The position numbers and the translations under genes were made by a program. DNA of 64,000 nucleotides, from the NCBI GenBank assembly GCA_900766185.1, contig CAAFUL010000085.1, positions 65,465 to 129,464 of the forward strand, read 5' to 3'. A model generated the notes under the pieces. The model was given only the letters and a program-made list of their open reading frames with translations, did not search any database and was not told the origin of the DNA. Origin of the DNA: an uncultured Johnsonella sp. Lineage in GTDB: Bacteria; Bacillota; Clostridia; Lachnospirales; Lachnospiraceae. Of this stretch, positions 2,953 through 14,165 are shown piece after piece. The stretch's first letter is position 1. Each line of letters begins with the position of its first letter.

Positions 2953-4027
2953 ACTCAGGATAAAAAACTCGCAGATAAATATAAAAAAGGATAAAAGGTT
3001 CTTACTCAGCTTTCCACACAAACATCTTTTAGACTGTAGTATAGAAGAGACGGAAGATGAGAGTATTTTTATATTTGATCTAAGTGAACAAAGTAAGCTA
3101 AGTGAAGCTTTAGACCTAAAGTTAAAGGATAAGTACAGGCTGCTTTACAATGTAGGAGAGCTTAATACCATAAGTGATAAATATATCGTAGATATAAGTC
3201 CGGATAATTTAGTCTATGATGTAAACTTGATTCCCTCATTACTTTTTAGGGATAAGGCAAGGGCAGATGAGGAGGATAGCTTTTTACCCCGTTATAAAGC
3301 ACTGGTAGCCTATGTATTAAAACCGAATTTAGGATTTGAGGATTATTATGTAGGCGGAGACGAGTTTTATATAAAGTACAAGGAGCTTAAACAGCTTGCA
3401 GCTATAGAAAGTACCAAAGATTTAAGAGCATGGCTTTTGTCAATGTATAAGTCTTTGGAAGACTATATAAATACTAAAACCAGGAGTATTTCTATAAGAA
3501 ATTATAAACTTATAAAAGTTTTCATGCCTATTATGCTGGGAATTGCCGTATTAAGCCTTGCCTACTCATTATATTTATATAAACATGATTTTGTATTTAA
3601 GGACAGAATTATCAAGGCACATCAGCTTTATCTGTCCATGGATTATGTAAAGCTTGAAGAAAGCCTACAGAATATAAATCTTGACAGACTTCCCACAGAA
3701 TCTAAGTATATACTTGCCAGAGCCTATGTATCTACGGAGGGTCTTACTCCAAAGCAAAGGGAGAATGTCCTGTCGGCTATGAGCCTTAATATTGACAGCC
3801 ATGTGTATGATTTTTGGATTTTAATAGGCAGGCTTAAGTTTGCGGATGCCATAGACATGGCAAAGAGGCTTGGAGATAAGGAGATGCTGCTTTTTGCCTA
3901 TATTAAAGAGTTTAACTATTTAAAAGCGGATCTTAGTAAAAGCGGTGAGGAGAAGGCGGCTCGCATATCTGAACTTGAAAAGCTTATAGAGGAAATGAAA
4001 AAGACTACAGAAAATGTAAATCAATAG
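2936..4027 (+). CDS. essB: EssB/YukC T7SSb membrane protein (N-terminal pseudokinase-like domain, single TM, extracytoplasmic C-terminal domain)
   Basis: 363 aa with one central TM (VFMPIMLGIAVLSLAYSLYLY). Soluble domains flank it on both sides, as in EssB. Translationally coupled to esaB and followed by essC. Confidence 0.65.
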   Translation: MESTYKLRIKNSQINIKKDKRFLLSFPHKHLLDCSIEETEDESIFIFDLSEQSKLSEALDLKLKDKYRLLYNVGELNTISDKYIVDISPDNLVYDVNLIPSLLFRDKARADEEDSFLPRYKALVAYVLKPNLGFEDYYVGGDEFYIKYKELKQLAAIESTKDLRAWLLSMYKSLEDYINTKTRSISIRNYKLIKVFMPIMLGIAVLSLAYSLYLYKHDFVFKDRIIKAHQLYLSMDYVKLEESLQNINLDRLPTESKYILARAYVSTEGLTPKQRENVLSAMSLNIDSHVYDFWILIGRLKFADAIDMAKRLGDKEMLLFAYIKEFNYLKADLSKSGEEKAARISELEKLIEEMKKTTENVNQ

Positions 4028-4045: not shown

Positions 4046-7000
4046 ATGACAAGCCTTATATTATATAATGATAAAAAGTATATAGAATTATCAATTAAGA
4101 GTAAGATAACAGTTGACAAAGCCGTATTTGCTTCAAAGGAAGATTTGTGCATAAGTCCTGCTTTAGAAAAAGACAGCTATACAAAGGGTGAGGAAGATAT
4201 AAAGTCCGGTAATACTCGAAAGGTAGAAGATATAAGTATCAATTCTCTAAGTTTGGAAGATTTTTCAAAGTCAAATCCTGATAAAATAATGCCTCTTCTT
4301 TTTGAGAATGTGCCGTATCAAAGATATTATCTAAAAAATATCATAAGAATATCGGCTGATGAAGATGCCGATATAGTAATAAAAGATAAGAGTATAGACC
4401 TGATTCTTGAAGGACTTAAGTTAAATATTTTATCAGGAAGAGTATATGTTAATGCTGTTATTAAAGAAAGGGGAATTTATGAGCTTGACAAGGGTACAAT
4501 GATTTTTTTCCCTGAGGTCAAGATAAATCTATATGATTCTTTTATAGAGATTTCTTCTAATAGCTACAAAACCTCCTTGCAGGCTGTACTTGAGGAGTAT
4601 TCTGTATTTGAAGGTTTTCCCGTATATAAAAAAGCCCCCAGAATAAGAAAATCCTTACCAACTGACAGTGAGGATATTAAAAATCCTAAAACCAAGGAAG
4701 AAAAGCCTAAGTTTGATATGGCAAAGCGTATAGCGATGCCTCTTCTTACTATGCTTATGACGGTAGGTGTCAGTATAGTCTTAAAAAGAGGTATGTATAT
4801 ACTTATGAGTGTAAGTACCTTTATTTTGAGTATTGTATTTTCCGTATATACCTCCATACAGGAAGGTAAGGAGTTTAAGGAAAGAGAGCTTAAGAGGGTA
4901 AAAAACTATGAAAAGTATCTGCTTGAAAAAAGAAAGACTTTGCATAAGTTATACTTAAAGCAAAAGGAAGCACTTGAGTTTACTTATCCAAGTATACAGA
5001 GTATAGAGAAAATGATAGCCGGGTATTCTGACAGGATATATGAGAGAGGTTTTGATGATAGTGATTTTTTACATATCTCCTTAGGAAAGTCCGGAATGAA
5101 GTCAAGCTACAATATAAGCTACAGTGAAGATATAGAGTCCTTAGAAGAAGAAAGGCTTAAAGATGAAGCAAAAAGTCTATATGAAAAGTATTCTTATATA
5201 GATGATTTGCCTATGGTGGTGGATCTTAAAAATGCCAATCTGGGCTTGGTCGGTGAGAAGCCCTATGTGCATAAACTTATCAAAAGCATTATAACTCAGC
5301 TTTGTTTTTTCCACAGTTACCATGACCTTGAAATAATCATGTTTGTAGATAAAGAGTTTGAGAAGGAATTTGAAGCCTTTTCTTATTATCCTCATTTTAA
5401 ATTAAAAGATGTAAATGTAAGAACCTTGGTATATACCGATAATCATAGTGAGCAGGTGCTTTCAAGTATGAGCGGTATATTAAAGGGCAGAAAAAATAAG
5501 TTAAATGAAGAAAAAAAGGATATAAAGTTCTTACCGCACTATGTATTTATCGTAGATGAGCCCAAATTCATTATGGATAATTCCGTTATGGAGTATATAC
5601 AGGAGTTTGATAAAAGAATGGGTGTTTCTATAATCTTTTCAAGTGATGATAAAAGTAAACTTGCCGAGAATATAAAAACGGTTCTTATAATAGAAGGAAA
5701 AGAATTTGCGACATTGTTACTTAATGAGGGAAGCTTGGTATCTAGAGAACTTTTGCTTGAGGACTCTTCAAAAGTGGATACGGAGTTTATGGCAAGAAGG
5801 CTTAATGCACTTGAGCATATAAAGGGTAGCAGCAGTCGTATACCTGAGAGCCTAAGCTTTTTCGATATGTATGAGGTAGGAAGTCCTAAAGAGTTAAAGA
5901 TACTTGATAGATGGAATAAAAGCCTGATATATAAGTCTATGGCTGTACCGCTTGGTTTAAGAGCCGAGAAGGATATAGTATACCTTAATTTACATGAAAA
6001 AGCACATGGTCCTCATGGACTGGTAGCCGGAACTACCGGCTCCGGTAAGTCGGAGATTATACAAAGCTTTATCCTCTCACTTGCAGTAAATTTTCATCCC
6101 TACGATATAGGATTTTTGCTTATAGACTATAAGGGCGGAGGCATGGCGAATTTATTTGCAAAGCTGCCTCATTTGCTCGGAACTATAACAAACCTTGACG
6201 GAAGCGAGAGTTTAAGGGCACTTGCTTCTATACGAAGTGAACTTGCAAGAAGGCAGACCTTGTTTAATGAAGCCGAAGTCAATAATATCAATGATTATAC
6301 GAAGCTGTATAAGGCAGGCAAACTAAAGAAGCCGCTGCCTCATTTGCTTATAATCTCGGATGAGTTTGCACAGCTTAAACAGGAACAGCCGGATTTTATG
6401 ACGGAGCTTGTGTCTACTGCAAGAATCGGAAGAAGCTTGGGTGTGCATTTAATACTTGCCACACAAAAACCCTCAGGTGTGGTCAATGACCAAATCTGGT
6501 CAAACTCCAAGTTCAAGCTTGCATTAAAGGTGCAAAACAGTGCGGACAGTAAGGAAGTTATTAAAACTGAAGATGCCGCCCATATAACTCAGGCGGGAAG
6601 GGCGTATCTGCAAGTAGGTAACAATGAGATCTATGAGCTTTTTCAGTCGGCTTGGAGCGGTGCACCCTACTTTGAGAGGAAAGAATTAAGTTTTGACAGC
6701 AGCATATATAGAATCAATAAAATAGGGCAAAAGGTTTTGCTAAGTGATTTGGAAGAAGAAGAGTATAAAAAAGAAACTAAGCCGAGTACTGAACTTGATG
6801 TAAGTGTAGACTATATAAGGAAGGTTTATGACGGGTTAAATATTGAAGACATTGAAAGACCTTGGCTTGAACCTTTGAAGGATAATATATTAAATCCCTA
6901 TGTAACAAAGTATTTGGAAGTTCCTTTTGATGTGGCACTTAAGCCTGATTTAAGTATGAAGGCTCATATAGGACTTGCAGATATACCGGATAAGCAACAG

Positions 7001-8461
7001 CAGCTTGAATATGAGTTTGATTTTATTAAAGAGGGGCATCTTGCGATATTTTCATCGCAAGGCTTCGGTAAGTCTACCTGTATTATGAATATTATTCTGG
7101 ATCTGGCTATCAATAACTCTCCGACTAATTTGCATATGTATGTGTTGGATTTTGGTAACTCGGGACTTATACAGCTTAAAAGTATGCCTCATGTAGCCGA
7201 TTATATAGTATTTGATGATATGGAAAGACTCGGAAAGCTTATTGTAAGTATAGAAAATGAAATTAAATTAAGAAAAAAGCTTTTATCCAAGGCACTTGCA
7301 ATGAATTTTACCATGTATAATGAAATCAGCAAAGAAAGACTTCCGGCTAAAATCATCTTTATAGACAATATTGATATTATCAAAGAGATAGAATTTGATA
7401 TGGAAGAGTGGATCAATAAGGTGGCAAGAGACGGAGCCGGTCTTGGAATTTACCTCGTTATAAGTGCCGCAAGATACGGAGTGCTAAGGTATGCCACACT
7501 GAATAATTTTAAGACCAAGATTGCTTTATTCTTAGTTGAGGCAAGTGATGTTAATTCTCTTATGGGAAGATCAAAGTATAAGATACCTGAAGTTAAGGGC
7601 AGGGCTTTGGTAAAGCTTGAGGATACCAATCTTATGCAGGTTTACAAAGCGGTAGGCGGTGAAGGTGTGGGGTACTCTAAGAATGTGCTTAGCCTTGTGG
7701 AAACTATAGACAGTATCAATACAGCTAAAAAGCCGGATAAGATCAAGGTTATGCCGGATATTGTTATGTTTAGTGATATATTTAATAAAGATATCTTATC
7801 CGAGCGAAAGGCAGGTATAGGTTTGGATACGGAAAATGTAAGCATACAGGCGATAGAGCTTACAGGTACAGTGAATTTAATACTCGGATTATCACAGACC
7901 GGAAAGACCAATGTACTAAAAATCATATACTCTCAGCTAAGGGGAAGTAAGCTCTTCCTTGTCGATATCAGAGGCGGTGATTTCCTCGATATGGAAACCG
8001 GTCCGAATGATACCTGCGTGGACAGTGCGGCAGGTGTGGATAGTTTTATAGATGCTCTTATAGCTTATGTTGACGAAAGAGAAAACAGGTATATCGAAGA
8101 AGCCTCTGTAAAAAGATTAAAAGATTTTGTAAAGGAGCAGGAAAGTGCCGCTATAATTATAGATGATGCAGATAATTTTATAGAGCTTGTAAAACTTAGA
8201 AAGGCTGAGGCTGAAAGGGCATTTGCCAAGGCTTTGGAGTATGGTTTAAGTATAGTAGTAAGCACTGTGCCTAATAAGTTAAAGGGCTTTGATGAGCTTA
8301 CCAAAATATTCAGAGCGGCTAACAACCTGATAATACTCGGCTCTCCGGAAGATCAAAATATGATTAGAATCCCGAATATAAGAAATTATAAGCCAAGTAT
8401 AGATATGGGATTTATAGTATCAAGGCAGGGAGCAAGGAAGGTTCGTATGCCGAAAGCATAG
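4046..8461 (+). CDS. essC: EssC/YukB type VII secretion FtsK/SpoIIIE-family ATPase (1471 aa)
   Basis: N-terminal FHA-like region and two TM helices (~aa 225-270). Multiple P-loop ATPase domains, including Walker A motifs GTTGSGKSE and SSQGFGKST, with further degenerate P-loops. The length is typical of EssC. Confidence 0.85.
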   Translation: MTSLILYNDKKYIELSIKSKITVDKAVFASKEDLCISPALEKDSYTKGEEDIKSGNTRKVEDISINSLSLEDFSKSNPDKIMPLLFENVPYQRYYLKNIIRISADEDADIVIKDKSIDLILEGLKLNILSGRVYVNAVIKERGIYELDKGTMIFFPEVKINLYDSFIEISSNSYKTSLQAVLEEYSVFEGFPVYKKAPRIRKSLPTDSEDIKNPKTKEEKPKFDMAKRIAMPLLTMLMTVGVSIVLKRGMYILMSVSTFILSIVFSVYTSIQEGKEFKERELKRVKNYEKYLLEKRKTLHKLYLKQKEALEFTYPSIQSIEKMIAGYSDRIYERGFDDSDFLHISLGKSGMKSSYNISYSEDIESLEEERLKDEAKSLYEKYSYIDDLPMVVDLKNANLGLVGEKPYVHKLIKSIITQLCFFHSYHDLEIIMFVDKEFEKEFEAFSYYPHFKLKDVNVRTLVYTDNHSEQVLSSMSGILKGRKNKLNEEKKDIKFLPHYVFIVDEPKFIMDNSVMEYIQEFDKRMGVSIIFSSDDKSKLAENIKTVLIIEGKEFATLLLNEGSLVSRELLLEDSSKVDTEFMARRLNALEHIKGSSSRIPESLSFFDMYEVGSPKELKILDRWNKSLIYKSMAVPLGLRAEKDIVYLNLHEKAHGPHGLVAGTTGSGKSEIIQSFILSLAVNFHPYDIGFLLIDYKGGGMANLFAKLPHLLGTITNLDGSESLRALASIRSELARRQTLFNEAEVNNINDYTKLYKAGKLKKPLPHLLIISDEFAQLKQEQPDFMTELVSTARIGRSLGVHLILATQKPSGVVNDQIWSNSKFKLALKVQNSADSKEVIKTEDAAHITQAGRAYLQVGNNEIYELFQSAWSGAPYFERKELSFDSSIYRINKIGQKVLLSDLEEEEYKKETKPSTELDVSVDYIRKVYDGLNIEDIERPWLEPLKDNILNPYVTKYLEVPFDVALKPDLSMKAHIGLADIPDKQQQLEYEFDFIKEGHLAIFSSQGFGKSTCIMNIILDLAINNSPTNLHMYVLDFGNSGLIQLKSMPHVADYIVFDDMERLGKLIVSIENEIKLRKKLLSKALAMNFTMYNEISKERLPAKIIFIDNIDIIKEIEFDMEEWINKVARDGAGLGIYLVISAARYGVLRYATLNNFKTKIALFLVEASDVNSLMGRSKYKIPEVKGRALVKLEDTNLMQVYKAVGGEGVGYSKNVLSLVETIDSINTAKKPDKIKVMPDIVMFSDIFNKDILSERKAGIGLDTENVSIQAIELTGTVNLILGLSQTGKTNVLKIIYSQLRGSKLFLVDIRGGDFLDMETGPNDTCVDSAAGVDSFIDALIAYVDERENRYIEEASVKRLKDFVKEQESAAIIIDDADNFIELVKLRKAEAERAFAKALEYGLSIVVSTVPNKLKGFDELTKIFRAANNLIILGSPEDQNMIRIPNIRNYKPSIDMGFIVSRQGARKVRMPKA

Positions 8462-8748: not shown

Positions 8749-8949
8749 ATGGTTACAACTATAAAGGTAAACGGAATGATGTGTTCACATTGTAAAGCAA
8801 GTGTTGAAAAGGCAGTAAAAGCATTGGATAAAGTTAGCAAGGTTGAGGCTAATGTAGGTGAGAGAGAAGTTGTGGTTACACATGAAGATGATTTGAGTGT
8901 AGAAAAGATACATGAGGCAATTATAGCGGCAGGCTATGAGGTAATGTAA
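8749..8949 (+). CDS. copZ: copper chaperone CopZ (HMA domain)
   Basis: 66 aa with a GMMCSHC metal-binding motif and an HMA ferredoxin-like fold pattern. RBS aaggagac. Confidence 0.8.
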   Translation: MVTTIKVNGMMCSHCKASVEKAVKALDKVSKVEANVGEREVVVTHEDDLSVEKIHEAIIAAGYEVM

Positions 8950-9767: not shown

Positions 9768-10061
9768 ATGATAAGATTTCCTTTGAAACAATTAGCAAAA
9801 GATATTGATGAAAATAATCCTCCAAAAGGAAATGGATTTTCAGGAATTACATTAGCTTACAATGTTGAATATAAAGAAGATGTAGATACTGTAATTGAGT
9901 TAGTAAGAAAAGCAGGTGGAAAAATTGTAAAAGAGCCACAGGAAGTTTTCCGGGGTGGATATCATGCGTATTTTTCGGATTTAGATAGATACTACCGAGA
10001 AGTTTTATGGGGACCAAATTTTCAATTTGATGAAAATGGATTGCTGAAATTTTTAGGATAA
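9768..10061 (+). pseudogene. truncated VOC/glyoxalase-family protein (C-terminal module only)
   Basis: The 97-aa ORF contains only one beta-alpha-beta-beta-beta VOC module (GGKIVKEPQEVFRGGYHAYFSDLD). The N-terminal module expected for a ~125-aa VOC protein is missing. The upstream frame is closed. Confidence 0.45.
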
Positions 10062-10118: not shown

Positions 10119-10433
10119 GTGAATGAATTTAATGAATTTGTTCGTGAGGCTTTTTCCGCAGCAGGTGATATTGTCATAAAATCCATGATGGGCGGATATC
10201 TTGTATACCTCAATGGCAGACTGATAGGTGATATTTGTGATAATGAACTGTTTCTGAAAAGAACGCCGACAGCTGATAAACTTCTTGCAGACTCTGAATT
10301 GCGTTATCCTTATGAAGGTTCAAAAACATTGATGCATGTATTCGACAGATTTGAGGATACGGATTTGATTACAGAACTACTGGAAGGTATGTATACGGAA
10401 CTGCCCGAAAAGAAACCCAAGAAAACTAAATGA
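10119..10433 (+). CDS. TfoX N-terminal-domain-like protein (104 aa)
   Basis: Motif KSMMGGYLVYLNGRLIGDICDNELFLK resembles the TfoX_N consensus (MGGYGLY..G..F..I....LYLK). RBS gaggagg. Confidence 0.5.
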   Translation: MNEFNEFVREAFSAAGDIVIKSMMGGYLVYLNGRLIGDICDNELFLKRTPTADKLLADSELRYPYEGSKTLMHVFDRFEDTDLITELLEGMYTELPEKKPKKTK

Positions 10434-10575
10434 GACAGACAAGCTTCAGTTTGTTGAACTTAGCAAGTTATAAGTTTATATGAGATGAAACCTATAAAAC
10501 TTGTACGAATATTGTAGGGTAGGAAAAGAAATATTCCTCTATACTAAAATAAACTCAAGGAAAGGGGGAAGCGAA

Positions 10576-11418
10576 GTGAATATTATCAAGTCGTTTAACA
10601 ATACGATTGATTATCTTGAAACAGTTCTTGATGATAAAATTGATGAAAAGAAAATAACTCAATTATCAGGATACTCTTATTCAATGTTCAGTCGCTTGTT
10701 TTCTATTCTAACCGAAACAACGCTCTCAGAATATTTAAGAAGCAGAAGATTAACAGAAGCTGCCTTTATATTAAGAGATACGGATGAAAAGATAATTGAT
10801 GTTGCCTTCAAATTTGGATATGAGTCATCAGATTCGTTTGGAACAGCTTTTAAGAATTTTCATGGATTTACTCCTTCAGAGGTAAGAAATGGGAAACCGT
10901 TTAAATTGGTATCACGAGTTCAATTAGCACTCAGTGTAAGAGGAGGAAGAAGTATGAATATTACAATTCAAAAGAAAAAAGCATTTACAGTTGCAGGTGT
11001 AAATGAACAAAACATCAGTTCATTGCAATGTCCGAGTATCTGGGGTAAGCTGTATGAAAAATATAGCCATGATGAACTTGCAAGTTTGGGAAACGGTCAA
11101 AATGTGGGTGTTTGTCATGATGTGGAAAACCCAAGTACAATAAACTATATGGCAGGCTATATTGTTATTGATGCAGAGAAAGCAAAAAGTATGGGATTAG
11201 ATGTTTTGGAAGTTGAAGAAGCAGAGTATGCCGTTGTAGAGTTAACAGGATCTGTTCCGGAGTGTATTCATAAGGGGTGGAAATATGCGATGGAAGTATT
11301 CTTTCCCGAGCATGGATATGTCCATTCAGGAAAACCCGACTTTGAATATTATTACGAAGGTGATATGGATAGCAAGGACTATAAAATGGAACTTTGGATT
11401 CCGATAACTAAAGCTTAA
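10576..11418 (+). CDS. AraC-family transcriptional regulator with a C-terminal GyrI-like effector-binding domain
   Basis: AraC-type HTH pair (LSGYSYSMFSRLF...SDSFGTAFKNFHGFTPSEVR), then a ~150-aa GyrI-like/Rob-C-like domain. Start chosen at the GTG (10576) preceded by aaagggggaa. The ORF track begins upstream at 10501. Confidence 0.75.
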   Translation: MNIIKSFNNTIDYLETVLDDKIDEKKITQLSGYSYSMFSRLFSILTETTLSEYLRSRRLTEAAFILRDTDEKIIDVAFKFGYESSDSFGTAFKNFHGFTPSEVRNGKPFKLVSRVQLALSVRGGRSMNITIQKKKAFTVAGVNEQNISSLQCPSIWGKLYEKYSHDELASLGNGQNVGVCHDVENPSTINYMAGYIVIDAEKAKSMGLDVLEVEEAEYAVVELTGSVPECIHKGWKYAMEVFFPEHGYVHSGKPDFEYYYEGDMDSKDYKMELWIPITKA

Positions 11419-11665
11419 AAACAGTTTGTCGAGCTGAATAAAACTGAATATCTGAATATATGTGACGATAGAAAGTAAAACATCTATCGTCTTTTCTTAT
11501 GCAAAAAATTAAAAAGAGTGGTGGTGTAAGAATTGGAATTTGATTATTTTCTATAACAGTGAATAAGGGAGATAAGTAGTACTATCATGATTTGAAAAAT
11601 ATTTCATAATATGACAATAGATATCAGGTTATTGTGATATAATAAATATAGGAGATGTTAAGACG

Positions 11666-12565
11666 ATGAAAGATAATAGGCTATTTAGGATACTGTATTA
11701 TATTTTAGAAAAAGGAAAAGTTACAGCAAGCGAACTTGCAGATAAATTTGAGGTATCAGTCAGAACAATTTATAGGGATATTGACTCTATCAGCAGTGCA
11801 GGTATTCCCATTTATGCGTTGCAAGGAAAGGGTGGCGGAATAGAAATTGCTGAAGATTTTGTTCTTAGTAAATCACTACTTTCTGAAAATGAAAAACAGC
11901 AAATTATGTCAGCTCTTAAGGGATTGGATAATACCGCAATACAGCATGAAAATGAGCTTCTAACAAAACTTTCCGCACTCTTTAAGATGAAAAGTACCAA
12001 CTGGATAGAAGTTGATTTTAATAATTGGCAAAACAATAAGCTGTATGAAAAAGCTTTTGACGGTATCAAATCCGCAATTTTGAGTAAAAACATTATTTCA
12101 TTCACATATTTTAGCAGCAATGAAAAAGAAACAAGCAGAAGTGTTAAACCTGTGAGATTACTTTTCAAGAGTCAAGACTGGTATCTATATGCTTTCTGTT
12201 TACTCAGAAATGATTTTAGATATTTCAAGTTATCTCGGATAAAGAATTTAGAGATTCATACTGAAAAGTTTAATGACAGCTTTGAAGATGTAATTCTAAA
12301 AAAAGAAATGCCACACGAGAATACAGTGCATATAAAAGTTAAGTTTGACCGTAAAGTTGCTTTCAGAGTATATGATGAATTAAACAAAGAAATCACTGAA
12401 GATGATGAAGGAAATTTATATTCTGAAATAGAAATACCAAATGATTATAACCTATACAATTATATTTTTTCTTTCGGGGATGGAGCAGAAGTATTGGAGC
12501 CTAAAGAGATACGAATACGGATTAAAGAAATAATAAATAAAATGGCAGAAAAATATATAACTTGA
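11666..12565 (+). CDS. YafY-family transcriptional regulator (HTH_11 - WYL - WCX architecture)
   Basis: N-terminal DeoR/HTH_11-like helix (ASELADKFEVSVRTIYRDIDSISSAGIPI). Central WYL motif (QDWYLYAFCLLRNDFRYFKLSRI). C-terminal extension. RBS taggagatg. Confidence 0.8.
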   Translation: MKDNRLFRILYYILEKGKVTASELADKFEVSVRTIYRDIDSISSAGIPIYALQGKGGGIEIAEDFVLSKSLLSENEKQQIMSALKGLDNTAIQHENELLTKLSALFKMKSTNWIEVDFNNWQNNKLYEKAFDGIKSAILSKNIISFTYFSSNEKETSRSVKPVRLLFKSQDWYLYAFCLLRNDFRYFKLSRIKNLEIHTEKFNDSFEDVILKKEMPHENTVHIKVKFDRKVAFRVYDELNKEITEDDEGNLYSEIEIPNDYNLYNYIFSFGDGAEVLEPKEIRIRIKEIINKMAEKYIT

Positions 12566-12628
12566 CAAAAGGTGTCAAGTATCCTCCTGTATAATAAAAT
12601 CAACCAAATGTTAAGGGAGGATTGGATA

Positions 12629-13243
12629 ATGAAATATGAATGGAGAAAACAAGAAAAAAAATTTTATGGTGTAAAGCAAATACCTATCATTGTAGAAGTG
12701 CCAAAGCAAAAATTTATTTTGGTAAAGGGTAAAGGAAATCCGAATGAAGTAGATTTCTCAGACAGAATATCAGCATTATATGCTCTTGCCTATGCCATTA
12801 AAATGTTGTTTAAAAATGCAATGAAAAATAAAACTGATAACGAGATCACGGATTTTACGGTATATCCATTAGAGGGCTTTTGGAAAAAAGCAAAAGGAGA
12901 AGTGCTTGATAAAAATAAACTGGAATACACATTGATGATCAAGCAACCTGATTTTATTACTCAAGAGATATTCACAGAGGCACTTGAGAATATAAAAAAG
13001 AAAAAGCCAAACTCATTGTATGATGAGATGAGTTTTAGAGAAATAGAAGAGGGTAAAGCCATCCGGATTTTACATGTTGGAAGTTATGATGATGAGCCAA
13101 AATCATTTGAACAGATGAATGAATTTGCAAGAAAACTTGATCTTACAAGAATAGGTGATTCCCATAAAGAAATATACCTAAGTAATAAAAATAGGACATC
13201 TGAAGAAAAACAAAAAACCATATTAAGTTATTCAGTGAAATAG
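12629..13243 (+). CDS. GyrI-like small-molecule-binding domain protein (204 aa from the internal ATG)
   Basis: Two-repeat GyrI-like beta-alpha-beta pattern in the size range of YtkR7/C10R6-type proteins. Start chosen at ATG 12629 with RBS aagggagg. The ORF track starts at 12572. Confidence 0.55.
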   Translation: MKYEWRKQEKKFYGVKQIPIIVEVPKQKFILVKGKGNPNEVDFSDRISALYALAYAIKMLFKNAMKNKTDNEITDFTVYPLEGFWKKAKGEVLDKNKLEYTLMIKQPDFITQEIFTEALENIKKKKPNSLYDEMSFREIEEGKAIRILHVGSYDDEPKSFEQMNEFARKLDLTRIGDSHKEIYLSNKNRTSEEKQKTILSYSVK

Positions 13244-13255
13244 GAGGAATTTGTT

Positions 13256-13798
13256 ATGCCAAGACCAAGGACAAAAAATGATTTATTGACTGCTGCCAAA
13301 GAAAACTATGAAAAGTTAAATTTATCGATTTTACAGATGACCGGGGAAGAGTTAAATACAGCGTTTGATTTTTCAAAAGATGAGAAGAAAAAAGAAGCTC
13401 ATTGGAAAAGAGATAAGAATCTAAGAGATATTTTAATCCATCTCTATGAATGGCATCAGCTTATTTTGAATTGGGTATATGCTAATCAAAAGGGAGAAGA
13501 AAAACCATTTTTGCCCGAGCCGTATAACTGGAAAACTTATGGAAATATGAATGTAGAATTTTGGAAGAAACATCAAAATACTTCTCTTGAAGATGCAAGT
13601 AAAATGTTTCATAAATCCCATAGTGATGTTTTAGAATTGGCTGAAAAATTTACAAGTGAAGAATTGTTTTCCAAAGGCGTCTATAAGTGGACAGCAGGTA
13701 GTACACTGGGTTCCTATTTTGCGAGTGTCACTGCAAGCCATTATGATTGGGCGATGAAAAAGTTAAAAGCTCATCGGAAAAATTGTAAATCAAAATAA
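13256..13798 (+). CDS. ClbS/DfsB-family four-helix-bundle protein (DUF1706)
   Basis: 180 aa with the family hallmark KNLRDILIHLYEWHQLILNWV and the C-terminal HYDWAMKKL. RBS taggaggaa. Confidence 0.7.
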   Translation: MPRPRTKNDLLTAAKENYEKLNLSILQMTGEELNTAFDFSKDEKKKEAHWKRDKNLRDILIHLYEWHQLILNWVYANQKGEEKPFLPEPYNWKTYGNMNVEFWKKHQNTSLEDASKMFHKSHSDVLELAEKFTSEELFSKGVYKWTAGSTLGSYFASVTASHYDWAMKKLKAHRKNCKSK

Positions 13799-14119
13799 TT
13801 GGAATAGGATATTAAAGTGCATTTTACAAAAGAAAAAGGACTACTATCTTCAAAGAATGGAATAATTATGATAAAATTTTTAAAAACTTTCAGATTGGAG
13901 AATTATCGAAGGTAGAAGTATTTTAACAAATTACGAATTGAACAAATGATTTTTTGGATTATATGGAAAGTAATTTAGAGAGGATGAATTGAGAATTTTT
14001 TTAATTATAAAGAATTAAGCGGAAGATAATAATGTTAAGGAAGTAAAAGCATTAAGCCGGATATAGAGAATTAACTAAAATAAATTCAGTCACAAATTCA
14101 CTAATTGAGAATAATAAAA

Positions 14120-14165
14120 CGACCATACATGAGTATCTCTAATTTTGTATGGTCGCTATTTTTTG
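14120..14165 (+). terminator. rho-independent terminator ending the WYL/GyrI-like/ClbS transcription unit
   Basis: cgaccatacatgagtatctctaattttgtatggtcg followed by ctattttttg. Confidence 0.55.

Follow-up and report, generated by a model that had tools for sequence, protein, structure and literature searches.

A stretch of 64 kb of DNA from an uncultured Johnsonella sp. (contig CAAFUL010000085.1), which we call the window whenever the whole of it is meant, carries a compact cassette of three adjacent genes that code for a WYL-domain transcription factor, a standalone GyrI-like protein and a protein with the DUF1706 (ClbS/DfsB) fold. The open reading frames (ORFs) of the cassette region all lie on the + strand, and the ORF listing together with Pfam confirmed the family assignments that an earlier note on this DNA had made (WYL, GyrI-like PF06445, DUF1706/ClbS, TfoX_N and AraC-GyrI). 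The reading that we favour, with moderate confidence, is that of a mobile, WYL-controlled cassette combining a hydrolase of the cyclopropanoid cyclopropyl hydrolase (CCH) subfamily with a His-type DUF1706 protein that is not of the ClbS type, and whose full form also contains a SplB-like radical SAM gene. In that form the order is WYL regulator, GyrI-like hydrolase, His-type DUF1706 and SplB-like radical SAM. Below, L-numbers denote comparison loci and P-numbers database proteins, and protein lengths are given in amino acids (aa). The features of the cassette in the window are the following:

11609-11629: putative operator 1, an imperfect 21-bp palindrome (ATATGACA-ATAGA-TATCAGGT), 8 nt upstream of the -10 hexamer of the WYL gene.
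11638-11643, + strand: -10 hexamer TATAAT of the WYL gene promoter, with a TG before the hexamer (extended -10).
11666-12565, + strand: WYL transcription factor with the architecture HTH_11-WYL-WCX, 299 aa (Pfam HTH_11 E=1.4e-16, WYL E=1.5e-20, WCX E=4.6e-14).
12560-12580: putative operator 2, a perfect 21-bp palindrome (ACTTGACA-AAAGG-TGTCAAGT), 9 nt upstream of the hydrolase -10 hexamer.
12590-12595, + strand: -10 hexamer TATAAT (TGTATAAT), recognised by its sequence, of a putative internal promoter for the hydrolase and DUF1706 genes.
12629-13243, + strand: standalone GyrI-like protein, CCH subfamily, Lin2189-type, 204 aa (Pfam PF06445 E=2.5e-14).
13256-13798, + strand: DUF1706 (ClbS/DfsB-fold) protein, His-type, 180 aa (Pfam PF08020 E=4.5e-55).
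13817-13867, + strand: radical SAM gene remnant, the first 16-17 codons (VHFTKEKGLLSSKNG...), recognised by a translation match to full-length copies.
14120-14155, to 14164 with the CUAUUUUUU U-run, + strand: terminator-like hairpin with a 10-bp stem and a 16-nt loop (folding free energy, dG, -14.9 kcal/mol; z -2.3).

The CCH subfamily of GyrI-like proteins was defined by Yuan et al. (2017; PMC5684135), who found that E157 and E185 of Listeria Lin2189 are essential and W85 and Y187 critical, and that GyrI-like relatives without these residues (SbmC, BmrR, Rob) are inactive as hydrolases. All seven members of the subfamily that they tested hydrolysed yatakemycin, one of them coming from the human-associated Streptococcus anginosus, and four of the seven protected E. 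coli (PMC5684135). The PF06445 match spans the whole of the 204-aa window protein, which aligns with Lin2189 over its full length (E=7e-37). In this alignment, for which the numbering offset of Lin2189 was verified on nine named residues, E157, E185, W85 and Y187 correspond to E156, E181, W85 and Y183, and Y54 and Y58 to Y51 and Y55. Two changes in the aromatic cage are conservative (Y46 to F43 and F154 to Y153); the third, W99 to L98, is a change to Leu found in all cassette-clade copies, that of the window included. The four key residues, for their part, are invariant in 74 of 74 homologues. With the alignment and all the essential residues in place, the earlier proposal that the protein belongs to the tested hydrolase subfamily is well supported, and we infer that it could hydrolyse compounds of the yatakemycin/CC-1065 type. 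The gene was taken to start at ATG 12629, behind the ribosome-binding site (RBS) AAGGGAGG, and not at GTG 12572, because the Lin2189 alignment and the gene calls on identical contigs agree on this point. The tested S. anginosus hydrolase (ETI84332.1) was not among the named matches or cluster members examined for the cassette clade.

Some copies of the hydrolase gene are duplicated. Tandem or fragmented duplicates were seen at L041 and L054, which lie on one scaffold of Lachnospiraceae oral taxon 107, and at L056 and L062, which suggests local amplification of the gene. Two database proteins, P0008 (256 aa) and P0436, hold a GyrI-like and a DUF1706 domain in one chain, and one 90%-identity protein cluster mixes 204-aa GyrI-like with 180-aa ClbS/DfsB members; such combined proteins are probably run-through gene calls across a 12-nt gap, an artefact of annotation or clustering.

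The nearest solved relatives of the WYL protein are PafBC (6sj9, E=4e-13), PafC (7p5x) and the WYL protein 7qfz. In the beta4/beta5 loop of the WYL domain, FKLSR in the window aligns with FRLDR of PafBC, the basic character being kept and the first Arg replaced by Lys; in SiwR, another WYL factor, R204 and R207 are essential (PMC10693628). Both palindromes of the cassette follow the design ATATGACA-N5-TGTCAAGT, then 8-9 nt, then (TG-)TATAAT, and neither promoter has a correctly spaced -35, the WYL promoter having an ATGACA 21 bp upstream. Operator 2 overlaps the stop codon of the WYL gene (12563-12565), and 28 of 31 loci have its core without any change. Upstream of the WYL gene, TGACA-N5-TGTCA is found at a constant distance from the start codon in most cassette copies, across genera, and TGnTATAAT is conserved in other loci, while the -10 of the hydrolase promoter is kept in nearly all loci, including those that have no WYL gene. 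Both palindromes are conserved from genus to genus, in where they lie as well as in sequence, and this is so too where protein identity is down to 50-70%. When further operator copies were sought across the 64-kb window, a single other near-match turned up, inside an EssC-like gene and within chance expectation. We considered that operator 2 might be an RNA terminator or attenuator and rejected it: no U-tract follows it, changes in one half-site are not balanced in the other, and the motif also stands upstream of the WYL promoter. Because half-site changes go uncompensated and the U-tract is absent, the palindromes look like protein-binding sites and not RNA structures, and they are likely to be the operators of the WYL protein. 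These conserved operators at both promoters bear out the link between the regulator and the downstream genes that the earlier note had drawn.

The same note had taken the three adjacent genes for one unit closed by a single terminator. Their adjacency and order are indeed conserved, but the WYL, hydrolase and DUF1706 genes probably do not form one simple transcription unit, because the 63-nt gap between the WYL and GyrI-like genes holds a conserved operator and -10. The hydrolase and DUF1706 genes, separated by 12 nt and the latter preceded by the RBS GGAGG, are probably co-transcribed. No terminator lies directly after DUF1706; the nearest candidate is the hairpin at 14120-14155, about 320 nt downstream and past the gene remnant. 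On the upstream side, a terminator at 11464-11491 separates the cassette from the gene of an AraC-family regulator with a GyrI-like domain (AraC-GyrI).

The regulator gene is the part of the cassette that decays. Of 43 loci of the cassette clade, 24 have an intact WYL gene, 11 a degraded one and five none, while three that run into contig ends cannot be judged; put differently, of 40 copies with the promoter retained and the hydrolase gene intact, about 16 have a decayed WYL gene or have lost it. Degraded copies comprise internal deletions, frameshifts and five Saccharibacteria species in which all but the final ~120 bp of the WYL gene is gone, the operator and promoter being kept. Where the WYL gene is degraded or absent the hydrolase gene is nearly always intact. 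Because the -10 elements depart little from consensus, and loss of the WYL gene can leave its targets in place, we lean, if only slightly, towards a repressor that would be relieved by a signal over an activator.

The DUF1706 protein combines the fold of ClbS with a different site. Its AlphaFold2 model (pLDDT 96.9) is matched by Foldseek to the E. coli structure 5cof and to ClbS (6anr) with a TM-score of 0.80, at about 22% identity to ClbS (profile E=4e-22), and a second tier of matches consists of metal-dependent YfiT and DinB-like bundles. Tyr55 of ClbS is critical, the exchange Y55F abolishing protection (as described in a preprint). At this position the window protein has His62, on which phmmer, MAFFT and the profile alignment agree, and Pro153, a Pro in every solved structure, corresponds to His162. 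The solved members (ClbS, 5cof, DfsB, IRC4 and 4n6c) all have Tyr at the catalytic position, whereas His occupies it in 50 of 57 clade representatives (full-length proteins clustered at 50% identity). D58 is 98% conserved and H122 87%; H62, H122 and H162, conserved at 84-93%, lie on three different helices of the model. ClbS and DfsB are without the histidine triad usual in the DinB superfamily (PMC10693628). The His-type clade seems to have one in its three conserved His, which none of the solved, Tyr-type members has as a set; with a conserved Asp besides, the protein more likely works by a metal-dependent mechanism. The chemistry of the protein is in any case likely to differ from that of ClbS. 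Seven database proteins (P0124, P0171, P0182, P0241, P0250, P0253 and P0262) are His-type DUF1706 proteins of 330-350 aa, some of which match the query twice, and tandem-duplicated or fused forms of the domain therefore exist.

This site weighs against the model of the earlier note, in which the GyrI-like and DUF1706 proteins would both be cyclopropane hydrolases, the second active on colibactin, and both would be induced by a damage-sensing WYL activator. The fold shared with ClbS, the well-supported hydrolase half and the damage-responsive PafBC as nearest solved relative of the regulator all speak for it, as does the work of Silpe et al. (PMC8907063), in which all the ClbS-like proteins assayed, with identities as low as 27%, gave protection from colibactin. 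However, the catalytic Tyr for which that note had proposed to look is a His in the window and in most of the clade, and the correlated change of Pro153 to His, together with the third conserved residue H122, points to a different active site. Moreover, the most distant ClbS-like protein shown to be colibactin-protective, from B. longum, appears to be Tyr-type as well (A-Y-Q-V-G-W, read from garbled text; PMC8907063). No pks/clb genes were found near the window cassette or in any related locus examined. The cassette is mainly oral, judging from record titles, and colibactin producers are enteric. Colibactin resistance is not indicated by a protein whose catalytic Tyr is replaced, the notion of two independent cyclopropane-hydrolase families is left unproven, and we regard the model as unlikely.

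A fourth gene completes the cassette elsewhere. In many loci cross-genus homology stops at exactly 13867, and the last 51 nt before this point encode the N-terminus of a radical SAM protein of ~292-300 aa, a full-length gene for which follows DUF1706 in at least 11 other loci (L016, L017, L022, L023, L025, L029, L042, L049, L050, L077, L091 and L178-180). Since only 16-17 of its codons are left in the window where the gene is full-length in others, the window holds a trimmed three-gene copy of a four-gene cassette. The full-length copies have the CxxxCxxC motif (Pfam Radical_SAM E=4e-16), and their best NCBIfam matches are the SplB-like PA0069 and Rv2578c families, at 142 and 131 bits against cut-offs of 360 and 430; scores so far below the cut-offs mark the cassette protein as a putative clade distinct from both. 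PA0069 belongs to the SOS regulon of P. aeruginosa, and a relative of it as fourth gene reinforces the theme of genotoxins and DNA damage that had been proposed for the locus. The protein also matches a phage orthologous group annotated as "DNA repair photolyase". The copy at L029 (1069-1989) and its equivalents match phrog_13321 (function unknown) with E=4e-86, which places close relatives on phages or prophages.

To see how far the arrangement recurs we surveyed species-representative genomes, anchoring on the hydrolase. The WYL, hydrolase and DUF1706 genes keep their order and spacing, with 70-90% DNA identity, across oral genera and phyla. All three are found in Johnsonella, Oribacterium, six Lachnoanaerobaculum species, Catonella, Filifactoraceae, Peptostreptococcaceae, Tissierellia, Granulicatella and Peptostreptococcus and, among streptococci, in Streptococcus mitis, S. 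infantis and S. pseudopneumoniae. WYL and hydrolase genes only are found in other streptococci, Aggregatibacter, Fusobacterium and Granulicatella adiacens, and hydrolase and DUF1706 genes only in Saccharibacteria, S. australis, Peptoanaerobacter and Campylobacter; in all relatives below ~55% identity (Bacillus, Listeria, Companilactobacillus) the hydrolase gene is alone. Because order and spacing recur in many genera and in unrelated contexts, the adjacency of the genes goes far beyond chance.

The contexts also indicate how the cassette moves. On contigs encoding a hydrolase that bears the names of S. pneumoniae and S. agalactiae, the four-gene set is flanked on one side by relaxase/MobC genes and on the other by a large serine recombinase, and the chromosomal DNA past the recombinase differs in each streptococcal case. 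The same recombinase family lies beside the cassette in L. saburreum, Catonella and mitis-group streptococci. On this comparison of loci, the cassette appears to spread horizontally among bacteria of the human mouth and some of the gut. Carriage by phages or plasmids was considered and rejected, as no phage record matches and the plasmid matches are to DUF1706 genes on Enterococcus megaplasmids only. All three genes are under purifying selection: comparison with the window copy gives ratios of non-synonymous to synonymous substitution rates (dN/dS) of 0.06-0.09 (WYL), 0.14-0.26 (hydrolase) and 0.08-0.20 (DUF1706).

Five Saccharibacteria/Nanosynbacter species (L012-L016) have a hydrolase gene 91% identical to Lachnospiraceae copies, and one of them (L016) has the DUF1706 and radical SAM genes too; these copies are clear cases of cross-phylum transfer into epibionts with reduced genomes. 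A gene for a 623-aa fused ABC transporter (ABC_membrane and ABC_tran) lies within a few kb of the hydrolase gene at L012-L017, L039, L043 and L094, in Saccharibacteria, Oribacterium, Mesocricetibacter and Peptoanaerobacter, and it is possibly an exporter partner, possibly a coincidence.

In the window itself the cassette sits among thioesterase, SecG and RNase R genes, in DNA of uniform GC content (~33%) and skew. The window matches an uncultured oral Johnsonella: metagenome contigs show the same layout, and in a Johnsonella metagenome-assembled genome (MAG) the hydrolase is 99% identical as a protein and the locus ~93% identical as DNA. Upstream of the cassette lie:

9768-10061, + strand: C-terminal fragment of a glyoxalase/bleomycin-resistance-family protein (profile positions 57-117 of 121).
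10119-10433, + strand: standalone TfoX_N-like protein, 104 aa (Pfam PF04993, E=2e-8).
10576-11418, + strand: AraC-family regulator with a C-terminal GyrI-like/Cass2 effector-binding domain, 280 aa (Pfam HTH_18, HTH_AraC, GyrI-like, Cass2; E=2e-24).
11464-11491, to 11498 with tail, + strand: intrinsic terminator of the AraC-GyrI gene, a 9-bp stem followed by UUUUCUU (dG -11.3 kcal/mol, z -2.5).

The start of the AraC-GyrI gene is GTG 10576, as called by gene callers on identical contigs, and not 10501. It had been suggested that this regulator and the TfoX-like protein belong to the same island as the cassette, which holds in part for the first and fails for the second. AraC-GyrI copies lie near the cassette at L021, L025 and L032 (phmmer E ~1e-157 to 1e-169), with hosts that include Lachnoanaerobaculum gingivalis, a Filifactoraceae MAG, an Oribacterium MAG and several metagenome contigs; their positions vary, their DNA identity is 83-85% where measured, and the closest Johnsonella genome has none. 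In these loci AraC-GyrI is an occasional, position-variable companion. TfoX is near the cassette only at L032, with a weak match at L011, and is not conserved with it. A shared origin of the two GyrI-like domains of the window was rejected, as BLASTP shows no similarity between them.

Other observations concern the upstream DNA. The related Johnsonella at L011 has, at the same place, a full-length glyoxalase ORF of ~145 codons (3204-3638), ~420 bp of which are missing from the window, where the ORF codes for the C-terminal half of the domain. A segment of ~110 bp that includes the AraC-GyrI terminator (window 11442-11557) recurs with 88-91% identity ~840 bp downstream of DUF1706, immediately after the radical SAM gene, in a Lachnoanaerobaculum MAG (L022, 8070-8182) and in an Oribacterium MAG (L032, 8075-8182), the latter having a copy on both sides of the cassette; it may be a recombination scar or junction sequence. 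Farther upstream the window codes for a 1471-aa protein with multiple FtsK/SpoIIIE domains (4046-8461), an EssC-like ATPase of type VII secretion, and for a 66-aa HMA copper-chaperone-like protein (8749-8949), neither of which is linked to the cassette in other genomes.

Taken together, we picture the cassette as working in the following way. A dimer of the WYL protein would bind both palindromes through its helix-turn-helix and so regulate its own gene as well as the two genes downstream. The WYL domain would sense a nucleic-acid-type or related signal which, if our slight preference for a repressor is right, would relieve repression. The hydrolase would open the cyclopropane warhead of alkylators of the spirocyclopropyl-cyclohexadienone type (yatakemycin/CC-1065-like), or of a related electrophile, before it touches DNA. 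The DUF1706 protein, without the tyrosine chemistry of ClbS and more likely a metal-dependent enzyme similar to DinB/YfiT, could have as its substrate that toxin, the product formed from it or a second electrophile, and the radical SAM protein, where present, would handle DNA lesions. A bolder version, which we hold to be doubtful, makes of the cassette a mobile anti-genotoxin island selected by an undiscovered DNA-alkylating product of a member of the oral microbiome, in which the hydrolase would destroy the warhead, the His-type DUF1706 would be a new metal-dependent detoxifier and the radical SAM protein would repair the adduct.

Several points weigh against the picture of a controlled detoxification cassette. 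The functions of the cassette-clade proteins are all predicted from sequence, and the convergence in space of H62, H122 and H162 is assumed from their conservation. The window hydrolase is only 35.5% identical to Lin2189 and has Leu for the cage residue W99. We know of no producer of yatakemycin-like compounds in the mouth. As for the regulator, the characterised stress-linked WYL factors (PafBC, SiwR, DriD) are activators and not repressors (PMC10693628). Linkage is loose as well. Among DUF1706 relatives of at least 73% identity, the hydrolase gene lies upstream in 24 of the 62 loci with enough flank, ~60% being without it; in some copies hydrolase pseudogenes lie between WYL and DUF1706, and two divergent His-type DUF1706 genes have unrelated neighbours. 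The linkage of hydrolase and DUF1706 genes may thus go back to one ancestral fusion spread by horizontal gene transfer. Other settings of DUF1706 include a WYL gene directly before it with no hydrolase gene, solo genes that still have the 5' remnant of radical SAM, AraC-GyrI directly upstream (L132, L138) and close homologues that stand alone in S. downei and Gemella. The gene set is probably a mosaic that recombines, not an obligate pair, and would derive from one ancestral assembly.

GyrI-like proteins are also known to bind drugs without further effect (Yuan et al., PMC5684135), so that drug sequestration by the window protein is a live alternative. The cassette would then be a general module in which the GyrI-like protein sequesters planar or cationic aromatics (antibiotics, plant alkaloids, antiseptics) without hydrolysing them, its Glu pair and aromatic cage forming a BmrR-like pocket, and DUF1706 would be an unrelated detoxifying enzyme. 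Yuan et al. found binding of 3-6 antibiotics out of 17 for each of YtkR7, SbmC and Rob, and termed GyrI-like proteins intracellular scavengers; SAV2435 and CTR107 are proposed multidrug binders, CtaZ is a GyrI-like antibiotic-binding resistance protein of anaerobes, and a Rob-like AraC-GyrI regulator of the xenobiotic type repeatedly accompanies the cassette. However, the residues that are invariant here coincide precisely with the catalytic pair of the CCH subfamily and its two critical aromatics, GyrI-like proteins without them did not hydrolyse, and the companion radical SAM gene points to DNA lesions, so we give a purely sequestering module a rather low probability. We rejected, as highly improbable, an anti-phage defence island in which the WYL protein (cf. 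BrxR, CapW) would repress a mobile defence system and the downstream genes would be its effectors: the WYL protein does match CRISPR-associated WYL models strongly (PADLOC E=4e-69), the cassette does lie on mobile elements, and radical SAM and, more weakly, WYL and DUF1706 do have phage orthologous groups, but the PADLOC matches are limited to generic WYL models, with none of the 5027 models matched by hydrolase, DUF1706, radical SAM, AraC-GyrI or TfoX, the effectors are of small-molecule detoxification families, one with tested members, and no phage record carries the cassette.

The reading of a mobile cassette with a CCH hydrolase and a His-type DUF1706 protein matters beyond this locus. Genotoxins that are small molecules, colibactin for one, mould microbiomes and have a link to cancer, and toxins that are still unknown are at present best traced through the genes that confer resistance. 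Here a validated class of cyclopropane-warhead hydrolases passes between mouth bacteria that are not related to each other, and purifying selection on it is strong; the hosts include Lachnospiraceae, streptococci (with S. pneumoniae and S. agalactiae), Saccharibacteria, Fusobacterium, Aggregatibacter and Campylobacter. Such exchange under purifying selection therefore implies an as yet unnamed selective agent in the niche of the mouth and, should the anti-genotoxin island be real, the cassette could be used as a resistance-gene probe for the toxin and its producer. There is also a consequence for gene counts. A 2026 preprint counted all DUF1706 genes in gut metagenomes as "clbS-domain homologs". 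A very common DUF1706 clade of human commensals has no ClbS Tyr and three conserved His, and counts of colibactin immunity based on DUF1706 therefore probably over-call. Finally, the cassette offers a compact, testable pair of WYL regulator and operator from Firmicutes, a group for which the searchable literature yielded no characterised WYL factor tied to toxin or DNA-damage defence.

Our verdict is that the cassette is a previously undescribed member of the WYL-controlled genotoxic-stress modules. Literature searches found no paper with both "WYL" and "GyrI-like", none linking DUF1706/ClbS with GyrI-like hydrolases in genomic context and none describing the linkage seen in the cassette, the nearest precedent being SiwR and its DinB-superfamily genes. 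In M. smegmatis SiwR binds a 19-bp palindrome between -35 and -10 and acts on adjacent DinB-superfamily genes under genotoxic stress (PMC10693628). SiwR and msmeg_1357-56 resemble the cassette in that an HTH-WYL-WCX factor lies beside DinB-superfamily bundles with a palindrome of ~20 bp at the -35/-10 region; a glyoxalase-like gene is sometimes adjacent in some Actinobacteria, and the window has its glyoxalase fragment upstream. Unlike the cassette, the SiwR system is actinobacterial and divergently transcribed, has DinB_2 and DUF664 targets in place of DUF1706 and GyrI-like ones, relies on a proven activator that binds single-stranded DNA and is not reported to be mobile. The same domain architecture is found in the damage-responsive activators PafBC and DriD and in the repressors of mobile defence islands BrxR and CapW, whereas the window protein would be of the single-chain homodimer type, with a tiny local regulon.

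Each of the downstream proteins, too, has a known counterpart from which it departs. With the CCH enzymes YtkR7, C10R6 and Lin2189 (PMC5684135) the hydrolase shares the standalone GyrI-like fold (a duplicated SHS2), the identical Glu pair and critical Trp and Tyr, and most of the aromatic cage, and it differs in its place under a WYL regulator, on a mobile cassette of oral commensals and outside a biosynthetic cluster. With ClbS (6anr) the DUF1706 protein shares the four-helix bundle, a conserved Trp (W59 in ClbS, W66 in the window) and, four residues ahead of the key site, an acidic or polar side chain, the differences being Tyr55 to His62, Pro153 to His162, the extra His122 and a neighbourhood free of pks genes. 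The radical SAM protein of the full cassette has the CxxxCxxC core of the SplB-like families PA0069 and Rv2578c, relatives of spore photoproduct lyase; it scores below their cut-offs (142 against 360 bits), and the window keeps 16-17 of its codons as the trace of a longer, four-gene form.

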